Source: a virus
Taxonomy: Duplodnaviria > Heunggongvirae > Uroviricota > Caudoviricetes
IMG/VR virus record: IMGVR_UViG_2534681940_000023
Coordinates: 1 to 9,206 of that record
Strand: one strand, 5' to 3'
DNA: 9,206 nt
The position numbers were made by a program, and so were the translations under genes. This document shows, in pieces, positions 2,395 through 3,375 of this stretch. How positions within the stretch are numbered: position 1 is the first letter of the stretch; every line of letters begins with the position of its first letter. The notes under the pieces were generated by a model. It saw only the letters and a program-made list of their open reading frames with translations, did not search any database and was not told the DNA's origin.

Positions 2395-3375
2395 TCACCC
2401 CCTGAATCCTGCCGGGATCTGGCTGTAGTCCACGTTGTCGTAACTGGCTTTGAAGTACGGGTCTTCACGTTTTTCTATGTGCGTGCTGACGGACGGCGAT
2501 AAGCGCAGGGAAAGCTCATCCCATTTTTCCCGCAACTTCGACGGGCTGAGCACGTTACGGCACCAGAACGGATCGCGGCTGACGCGGCTGTACATCTCGC
2601 AGATTTGTTTGTGAGTACGACCATCCTGCACACACATCAGGCGAATTTCGTTTGCCCATGCTGTCCAGTTCGGTTCTTTGGGACGAACCACCTCGCCGTC
2701 ACATTCGGCGGCCTGCTCGTACAGGGCGATGATTTTTTTCCAGAGCCACTGTGCGCAGGTCAAATCATCCTGCGTTCCCCACTGGCGCTTTTTAGGGCTG
2801 AATACAACCGCATCAGGATGGCGAGTTAAAAACTCCTGTTCAGCCGTTTGCGTGTCCGGTTGCGAAGCGTCCGGACGAGAAGAGGTTTTATTCTCTGTAG
2901 TAATCTCTGTTGTATTCTCTGTAAGATCGAAATTGGTTTTCCCTTCTCCGCGGCGAGGGGTTTCCCGTGTCCGCTGTGAAGGCTTTCCCTCCTCCGCGAA
3001 ATTGGGTTTTACAGTTTCCCGAAAACGGGTTTCCCCATTTCGGGAAAACTGATTGTTTTCATTGATAAGTTCATTAAGGCGCTCACAATCTATACGGTAG
3101 AACATTTTGTGCTCAAGACGCTTGTTGGTTTCAACCAAAATGCCTCTGGACACAAGATGCTTACGCGCTACAGCCTGTTGTTCAAATGTAAGTCCGGTTT
3201 CGTGTTGTATCTCTTCACGCGTTTTATGTACGCCTTCCGCTGCATGTGCTTTATCCTGCCAGTAAAAAATCTGACCAAAGAAAATAACAGCGTGCGGACT
3301 TCCCATGTATTTAACGAGCCCAGGGTAATAAGCAACCGGATGCCCAAAATCGAGCAGAAGATCAGACGGACGCAT
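2395..3375 (-). CDS. Lambda-O-like replication initiator (replisome organiser) with an internal origin
   Basis: The N-terminal domain precedes an iteron array that lies inside the coding sequence, as in lambda O/ori-lambda. It resembles yfdN/yfdO-type defective O proteins of CPS-53. The likely start is ATG 3375 (GGGAGGTG 5 nt upstream); GTG 3381 is also possible. Confidence 0.7.
   Translation of the reverse strand: MRPSDLLLDFGHPVAYYPGLVKYMGSPHAVIFFGQIFYWQDKAHAAEGVHKTREEIQHETGLTFEQQAVARKHLVSRGILVETNKRLEHKMFYRIDCERLNELINENNQFSRNGETRFRETVKPNFAEEGKPSQRTRETPRRGEGKTNFDLTENTTEITTENKTSSRPDASQPDTQTAEQEFLTRHPDAVVFSPKKRQWGTQDDLTCAQWLWKKIIALYEQAAECDGEVVRPKEPNWTAWANEIRLMCVQDGRTHKQICEMYSRVSRDPFWCRNVLSPSKLREKWDELSLRLSPSVSTHIEKREDPYFKASYDNVDYSQIPAGFRG
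2885..3080. repeat. Candidate replication origin: 3 tandem ~12-bp repeats (TTCTCTGTA) plus 5 iterons (consensus GGkTTTCCCnnyTCCGCG) at 23-24 bp spacing, then an AT-rich stretch
   Basis: Iteron copies start at about 2934, 2957, 2981, 3004 and 3027. The last two contain CCCGAAAACGGG-type dyads. The AT-rich segment 3050-3080 (tgattgttttcattgataagttcattaagg) follows. All of this lies inside the initiator gene. Confidence 0.6.

Follow-up and report, generated by a model that had tools for sequence, protein, structure and literature searches.

A predicted lambda-like replication origin with 23-bp iterons and conserved 12-mers inside the initiator gene of an E. coli prophage

Introduction

The closest described relatives of the locus analyzed here are the replication origins of phage lambda and the Stx phages, the layout of which has been reported previously (PMC7466680). 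In lambda, the starts of the iterons are 20, 24 and 23 base pairs (bp) apart, and an AT-rich tract follows the iterons on the side of the C-terminal domain (C-domain) of the initiator protein O. Here, we analyzed a 9,206-bp stretch of DNA from a Caudoviricetes virus (IMG/VR record IMGVR_UViG_2534681940_000023, positions 1 to 9,206), hereafter called the window, with a focus on repeated sequences inside a gene for a replication initiator (2395-3375, minus strand). The window covers the early-right region of a prophage of E. coli that belongs to the lambdoid group.

Based on comparative evidence, we propose with a probability of roughly 0.8 that positions 2887-3048, in the middle of the initiator gene, are the replication origin of this prophage. 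The predicted N-terminal winged-helix domain (N-domain) of the initiator would bind five 23-bp iterons to form a nucleoprotein complex like the O-some of lambda. Strain from this complex would open the adjoining tract of low stability on the C-domain side, which consists of three ACAGAGAWTAC 12-mers, and the lambda-O-like C-domain would then recruit the replicative helicase of the host. The specificity module would consist of the N-domain together with the iterons. The 12-mer tract, in turn, would be a sequence-conserved element shared throughout the initiator superfamily, as well as a patch of homology for the recombination of modules. The lambda-style design has been known for decades, and the prediction of an origin in the window is expected rather than surprising.

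A first-pass annotation of the same DNA had placed a replication origin within the initiator gene, and the comparative evidence upholds this placement, with the repeats located between a DNA-binding N-domain and a lambda-O-like C-domain. The architecture of ori-lambda, which it also suggested, was recovered as well, but the order of the elements given there has to be inverted: the gene is located on the minus strand and reads N-domain, AT-rich 30-mer, iterons, 12-mers and C-domain.

Results

Five iterons with a strict 23-bp period

The self-identity of the region 2935-3050 at a lag of 23 was 0.645, which was reached by none of 5000 shuffles and was the top value among all blocks of 116 nucleotides (nt) at lags of 10-40 in the 9.2-kb window. 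A weight matrix of the iteron was constructed from nine collinear Enterobacterales orthologues, with the window's own units contributing five of the 45 units. This family matrix identified exactly five iterons at 2934-3048, with scores of 18-28 bits each, whereas the next unit upstream scored -19. The consensus in gene orientation is nnTTCGSGAAnnnGGRAAAnCCn, which combines a near-palindromic octamer with GGRAAAnCC. Iteron 1, nearest to the N-domain, is located at 3026-3048 (TTTTCCCGAAATGGGGAAACCCG in gene orientation, 28.1 bits) and is followed by iteron 2 at 3003-3025 (TTTTCGGGAAACTGTAAAACCCA, 21.9 bits), iteron 3 at 2980-3002 (ATTTCGCGGAGGAGGGAAAGCCT, 24.2 bits), iteron 4 at 2957-2979 (TCACAGCGGACACGGGAAACCCC, 18.4 bits) and iteron 5, nearest to the 12-mers, at 2934-2956 (TCGCCGCGGAGAAGGGAAAACCA, 21.8 bits). 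A half-unit, ATTTCGATC, at 2925-2933 links the iterons to the 12-mers.

Thus, the five units listed in the first-pass annotation were all recovered, and their sequence differs from that of the lambda iterons, as had been stated. Some details needed correction. The spacing is exactly 23 bp and not 23-24 bp, which corresponds to about 2.2 helical turns rather than almost exactly two. Furthermore, the TCCGCG half of the pattern GGkTTTCCC..TCCGCG, which had been ascribed to all five copies, fits only three of them, since iterons 1-2 (3003-3048) carry TTCCCGAA/TTCGGGAA in place of the CGCGGA/AGCGGA of iterons 3-5.

Because 23 is not a multiple of three, iterons 1-5 are translated in frames 0, 2, 1, 0 and 2, resulting in unrelated peptides. 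Conservation in the iteron block among the nine orthologues was flat across the three codon positions (1.17/1.26/1.25 bits) and followed the 23-bp motif. The coding region of the N-domain displayed a normal coding pattern in the same orthologues (1.47/1.65/0.70 bits). Taken together, the use of three reading frames and the lack of codon periodicity show that the iterons are conserved as DNA and not as protein.

The junction between the iterons and the 12-mers contains a GATC site at 2925-2928 (TTCGATC), which is kept in all Enterobacterales relatives. At this position, GTTAAC or GTTAAT predominates in the relatives from Burkholderiales and Pasteurellaceae. The phage with the GATC junction encodes its own Dam methylase (1647-2300). 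Eight Burkholderiales relatives (L012-L016, L018, L020 and L021) have a DnaA box within the coding sequence about 25-35 bp past the 12-mers, with a perfect TGTGGATAA in seven and one mismatch (TGTGGACAA) in L014. A scan of the window for promoters and terminators gave matches at chance level only.

An initiator with a lambda-O-like C-domain

The initiator gene encodes 326 amino acids (aa) from an ATG at 3375; the open reading frame (ORF) called mechanically begins upstream of this, at a GTG at 3381. According to the ORF list and the translation, the protein consists of a predicted winged-helix N-domain, a middle part predicted to be disordered and encoded by the proposed origin and a lambda-O-like C-domain. 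An identical 326-aa protein occurs on 107 contigs and is listed by NCBI as a hypothetical protein of E. coli. The best PHROG matches were 391 (E 6e-82) and 9773 (E 1e-68), both annotated as 'replication initiation O-like'. The matches that bear on a DnaD-like or replisome-organizer type of initiator, PHROGs 2514 (E 6e-28) and 4880 (E 2e-12), ranked behind them. No Pfam or NCBIfam model matched the protein, including the DnaD and Phage_rep_org profiles of Pfam, and a sequence search of the PDB returned nothing useful.

The N-domain (aa 1-113, encoded at 3037-3375 on the minus strand) is presumed to be the module that binds the iterons. AlphaFold2 predicted a winged-helix domain with confidence for aa 18-112, where the block-mean predicted local distance difference test score was about 75-95 and mostly near 90, and the topology was H-H-E-H-H-E-E-H. 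A Foldseek search of the N-domain against the PDB yielded only weak, generic winged-helix matches, all with E>=0.03, among them 5kbj, a staphylococcal Rep-DNA complex, and the N-domain of DnaD, and these do not point to any specific structural relative. The N-domain family contains 3746 clusters at 50% identity (E<=1e-3), in which the domain is always N-terminal. The Pfam family Phage_rep_O (PF04492) did not match the N-domain even at E 10, whereas it matched lambda O with E 6e-36. The segment encoded by the iterons and the 12-mers, aa 114-200, was predicted by AlphaFold2 to be disordered.

The C-domain (YfdO type), encoded at 2506-2904 on the minus strand, is a homologue of the C-domain of lambda O, the part of that protein that binds P, and is presumed to be the module that recruits the helicase. 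In a BLASTP alignment over 133 aa, it was 35% identical to aa 150-270 of lambda O (E 1e-25). A match to the C-terminal half of the gene (2395-2928) was present in 3571 of 5426 complete E. coli genomes, in most of them with 95-99% identity. The alignment with lambda O begins at ITTENK in the window and at ITKEKRK in lambda, which is within the AT-rich tract of lambda. Since this tract is on the C-domain side of the lambda iterons, the 12-mers are by position the equivalent element in the window.

The 12-mer tract as the candidate unwinding element

The three 12-mers are, in gene orientation, ACAGAGAATACA (2911-2922), ACAGAGATTACT (2899-2910) and ACAGAGAATAAA (2887-2898), and we propose that they serve as the tract for DNA unwinding and helicase entry. 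The matches score 18-21 bits in a weight matrix and occur nowhere else in the window. With a GC content of 0.31, the tract represents the least stable 40-mer of the initiator gene, and it is the conservation peak of the region in the nine orthologues (1.74 bits).

The first-pass annotation had noted the three 12-bp repeats (2887-2922) correctly and had described them as coding for a protein linker. The repeat ACAGAGAYTACW does encode TENTTEITTENK, but it is more than a linker, since its synonymous sites are fixed in phages of distant hosts, from E. coli to Burkholderia, Pseudomonas and Vibrio. This was quantified in a codon-usage test, in which the tract was delimited by amino acids alone. In GC-rich hosts, the ratio of the Thr codons ACA/ACT to ACC/ACG was 45:2 in the tract and 26:134 elsewhere in the same genes (p 2e-24). 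For enteric hosts, the Glu codons GAG:GAA were found at 32:0 in the tract as compared to 124:212 outside (p 2e-13).

The AT-rich 30-mer on the other side of the iterons (3050-3080) was also confirmed, with a GC content of 0.33, but it is not the equivalent of the lambda tract. It codes for the C-terminal helix of the N-domain (LNELINENN, within the helix at aa 97-112), and in duplex stability it exceeds the 12-mer tract, with -1.25 kcal per step (91st percentile of the window) as compared to -1.14 kcal (98th percentile). In Burkholderia relatives, the equivalent 30 nt have a GC content of 0.53-0.67, whereas the 12-mer tract remains at 0.33-0.44. Thus, the 30-mer is probably not the unwinding element.

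The alternative that survives best is that unwinding takes place elsewhere, for example at the 30-mer, which is likewise AT-rich, and that the 12-mer tract has been kept as a T-E-x-T protein linker or as a patch of homology for recombination. The 12-mers are indeed read nearly always in one frame, as T-E-x-T (x = I/T/N). Among the best 133 full-length representatives of the N-domain family, at least two T-E-x-T repeats were located at aa 125-200 in 84, and such a motif was found elsewhere in only one. The gene in the window is itself a recombinant with the crossover in the tract (see below), and the copy number varies from 3 to 5 among E. coli relatives that are otherwise 97-99% identical (L034-L094).

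Against this alternative, the synonymous sites are fixed in Burkholderia as well, although the rest of the same genes rarely uses ACA and ACT, and exchange between phages of so distant hosts is unlikely to maintain this identity. Nor is the frame invariant. In Vibrio X29, the copies are 11 and 10 bp apart and fall in frames 0, 2 and 0, and in Aggregatibacter and Canicola two ACACTAGATTAC copies start 13 nt apart and are thereby read in different frames. The tract also occupies the position of the AT-rich tract in lambda and is less stable than the 30-mer, which is GC-rich in GC-rich relatives. For these reasons, we consider the alternative unlikely, although it deserves more weight than any of those discussed below, and retain the 12-mers as the candidate unwinding tract.

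ACACTAGATTAC is the variant of the 12-mer in Pasteurellaceae (Haemophilus, Canicola and Aggregatibacter), with a spacing of 12 nt in Haemophilus. In one Aggregatibacter locus (L031), ACCCCCCTT repeats run on directly past the 12-mer tract. Three database proteins (P0013, P0017 and P0024) read the tract in the +1 frame (QRLLQRL), followed by apparent nonsense. These are probably frameshifted or mis-assembled and were not used as evidence.

Association of the iterons with the N-domain in mosaic phages

Two phages with swapped modules were informative. Phage mEp460_4F5 has the 12-mers and the C-domain of the window, combined with another N-domain and other 23-bp iterons (CATYGGGTCAYTTTGACCCGATG type). 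Conversely, the N-domain and iterons of the window are found in the Stx2a phage Stx2_EH2201, where they are followed by a different C-domain and then by DnaC-like and DnaB-like genes. These mosaics show that the iterons travel with the N-domain and not with the C-domain. This is what is expected of a specificity determinant, the role that had been ascribed to the iterons in the first-pass annotation. It had also suggested a comparison with the origins of yfdN/yfdO-type prophages; here, the mEp460 type shares the C-domain and the 12-mers with the window and differs in the N-domain and the iterons.

The initiator gene of the window is itself a chimera. Its left part is 95-100% identical to the yfdO/mEp460 type, and its right part is approximately 99% identical to the Stx1a/Stx2a-phage type, so that the N-domain and the iterons belong to the lineage of the Stx1a/Stx2a phages (LC5678xx records). 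Identity to the mEp460-type parent spans 2331-2930 and identity to the Stx2_EH2201-type parent spans about 2890-3440. Since the two overlap in the 12-mers, we conclude that the gene is a recombinant with the crossover in the 12-mers (about 2890-2930). The resulting combination of N-domain and C-domain was found in none of the 5426 complete E. coli genomes.

The association extends to more distant relatives. All N-domain relatives examined (from Yersinia, Morganella, Serratia, Proteus, Arsenophonus, Pasteurellaceae and Burkholderiales) have 2-9 units with the same iteron core in a strict 23-bp register, followed by 12-mers. In relatives with an identity of only 26-35% (Salmonella 118970_sal3, Pseudomonas CF63a, Vibrio X29 and E. 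coli SaltyDalty), the sequence of the 23-bp iterons differs, and the array again leads into ACAGAGAYTAC repeats. Viral contigs were also selected by the 12-mer pattern alone. Directly upstream of the tract, the best period was 23 in 77 of 116 such contigs and 22-24 in 98, whereas a self-identity of at least 0.5 was reached by none of 327 control segments. The upstream parts of the ORFs in these contigs fell into one cluster, which holds both N-domain types and does not include that of lambda O. In a set of 54 distinct arrays, the iteron consensus was highly diverse, and its similarity tracked the identity of the N-domain (Spearman 0.56; Mantel 0/999).

Helicase loading and the activity of the window copy

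Several observations weigh against the proposed origin. The correlation between the N-domain and the iterons could in part reflect mere linkage of neighbouring DNA, although the invariant 12-mers next to the varied iterons argue for co-adaptation over linkage alone. The single-frame reading of the 12-mers as T-E-x-T means that their role in the protein cannot be fully separated from a role in the DNA. BLAST provided no link between the N-domain and that of lambda O, and a scan near the array in the window identified neither DnaA boxes (<=1 mismatch) nor the IHF consensus. A literature search found no experiment that shows an initiator of this type to bind DNA or to support an active origin. 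Finally, no lambda P-like, DnaC-like or DnaB-like gene was found after the initiator gene in the window (109-2394). The weakest step of the proposed mechanism is thus the loading of the helicase, and the copy in the window might be inactive.

The gap of 95 bp between the initiator gene and the Dam gene (2301-2394) is a remnant of yfdN, which neighbours the initiator gene in relatives and encodes a 164-aa protein there. YfdN was considered as an analogue of P and rejected, since it has no similarity to P and belongs to a PerC-like family of transcription activators. The equivalent yfdN remnant in strain KE54 is annotated by NCBI as a truncated pseudogene.

It could therefore be argued that the region descends from an origin but no longer functions as one, the prophage being a defective or recombinant element in which it has persisted as a remnant. 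The missing loader gene and the deletion of yfdN fit such a history, as does the combination of domains absent from the complete genomes. Decay is not what we observed in the gene itself, in which the ORF is intact and all five iterons score well, and the presence of the exact protein on 107 contigs also speaks against a remnant. Moreover, mEp460 is an isolated, viable phage with a replication gene of its own, annotated as 'replication protein'. This phage and its relatives rely on the same C-domain although they lack a loader gene: none is annotated in the matched region of either mEp460 or its close variant mEp460_4F5, so some host route must exist. On balance, we regard inactivity as rather improbable and infer that the copy in the window is a working origin, to which the C-domain would recruit the helicase.

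Regulatory and RNA-level explanations of the repeats

Another explanation is that the iterons are binding sites for the initiator with a mainly regulatory role, in autorepression, in copy control by handcuffing or in the titration and exclusion of related phages. Iteron arrays in plasmids act both in replication and in its control, and ectopic copies of ori-lambda reportedly interfere with the growth of lambda (PMC4488673, PMC3349717), which would favour such a role. Against it stands the conservation, over thousands of family members, of the full lambda-like layout with a binding domain, iterons, a tract of low stability and a domain for helicase recruitment. No separate candidate for an origin is apparent, and regulation is compatible with an origin function. 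A mainly regulatory role is therefore improbable, even more so than an inactive copy, and binding of the N-domain to the iterons is still best placed at the first step of initiation.

A structured messenger RNA (mRNA) element or a merely low-complexity protein segment is very improbable, and the former was rejected: the mRNA strand does fold better than shuffles (z = -4.5), but this follows from the dyad symmetry of the units, Rfam gave no match, the consensus fold of the nine orthologues differs from the single-sequence fold and has a covariation term of +2.0 (a penalty), and a protein repeat is not consistent with unrelated peptides in three frames within a segment predicted to be disordered.

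Genes and other features surrounding the initiator gene

Upstream of the initiator gene, the minus strand encodes a cII-like protein (5441-6139), a Rha/Ash protein (3783-5444) and two small ORFs between the Rha/Ash and initiator genes. A cI-like repressor with an S24 peptidase domain is encoded on the plus strand (6361-6987). After the initiator gene, also on the minus strand, follow the genes for Dam (1647-2300), for a protein consisting of a LexA DNA-binding domain only, and then for RusA and KilA-N. The LexA-like protein, located between Dam and RusA (108 aa, 1324-1650), consists of the DNA-binding domain alone, without an S24 peptidase domain.

The least stable DNA of the window is found in two AT-rich stretches (6273-6345 and 7015-7076), which flank the cI-like repressor gene. 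Both contain repeated palindromes of the type ACTAAG...CTTAGT that are likely operators.

Discussion

In the literature that we found, there is no description of this initiator family, of its iteron sequence, of the strict 23-bp period throughout the family or of a sequence-conserved 12-mer tract; the search covered this iteron, the 12-mer, the origins of yfdO, Aaphi23 and BcepIL02, and the 'Eru' replication regions of Stx phages. The analysis thus assigns a predicted origin and a predicted specificity determinant to a large initiator family outside the coverage of Pfam. Many prophages of E. coli encode members of this family, among them Stx1a and Stx2a phages, in which the control of replication bears on toxin production. 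It also provides a concrete case in which a conserved DNA element joins the exchanged parts of a mosaic gene, and it raises the question of how a lambda-O-type C-domain works without a P protein.

The position of the melted tract is held by a repeat with conserved synonymous sites, which points to a sequence-specific step in opening or in helicase loading. We tentatively suggest, at somewhat less than even odds, that the ACAGAGAYTACW repeats act in cis on origin function through their specific sequence, beyond an AT-rich spacer, and are common to a superfamily of phage initiators with thousands of clusters in hosts ranging from Enterobacterales to Burkholderiales, Pseudomonas, Vibrio and Pasteurellaceae. 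If so, ACAGAGAYTACW would be read by a conserved surface of the initiator, for example through binding of a single strand once the DNA has opened, or else by a protein of the host replisome that is universal. A constant ACAGAGAYTACW amid varying iterons and C-domains would then be the fixed joint at which the modules for specificity and helicase recruitment are shuffled. The AT-rich tract of lambda may be a degenerate copy of this element. The best match to the weight matrix in 2.8 kb of lambda is at the right end of the tract, but it is weak and unrelated matches in the window have equal scores, so we treat it as a lead only.

The locus shares most of its design with ori-lambda and with the origins of the Stx phages 933W and P27, which have 6 iterons. 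The origin of these phages and the one predicted in the window are both embedded in the initiator gene, where they separate the DNA-binding N-domain from the C-domain, and contain 4-6 initiator sites with partial dyad symmetry, spaced by 20-24 bp in lambda and by 23 bp in the window. In both lambda and the window, a tract of low stability on the C-domain side codes for a flexible linker, the C-domains are homologous and the specificity module is swapped between phages. Unlike lambda, the window has a different iteron sequence with a strict 23-bp period, a 12-mer repeat conserved in sequence instead of a loosely AT-rich stretch, and no P gene after the initiator gene.

The closest relatives in gene content are the mEp460-type phages and the yfdO-type prophage CPS-53 (KplE1), which share the C-domain, the 12-mers and the neighbouring genes for Dam, the LexA-DNA-binding-only protein, RusA and KilA-N, and which have another N-domain and other 23-bp iterons.

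There are also similarities to the iteron plasmids. RK2 oriV, F, pPS10 and R6K combine a winged-helix initiator (predicted in the window) with an iteron period of about 22-23 bp and an adjacent repeated AT-rich element. The initiator of RK2 also contacts one strand of its 13-mers. Unlike in these plasmids, the origin of the window would be located inside the coding sequence of the initiator, and the window contains no DnaA box. Its initiator would use a single winged-helix domain joined to a lambda-O-like C-domain, as compared to the WH1-WH2 pair of the Rep proteins of iteron plasmids.

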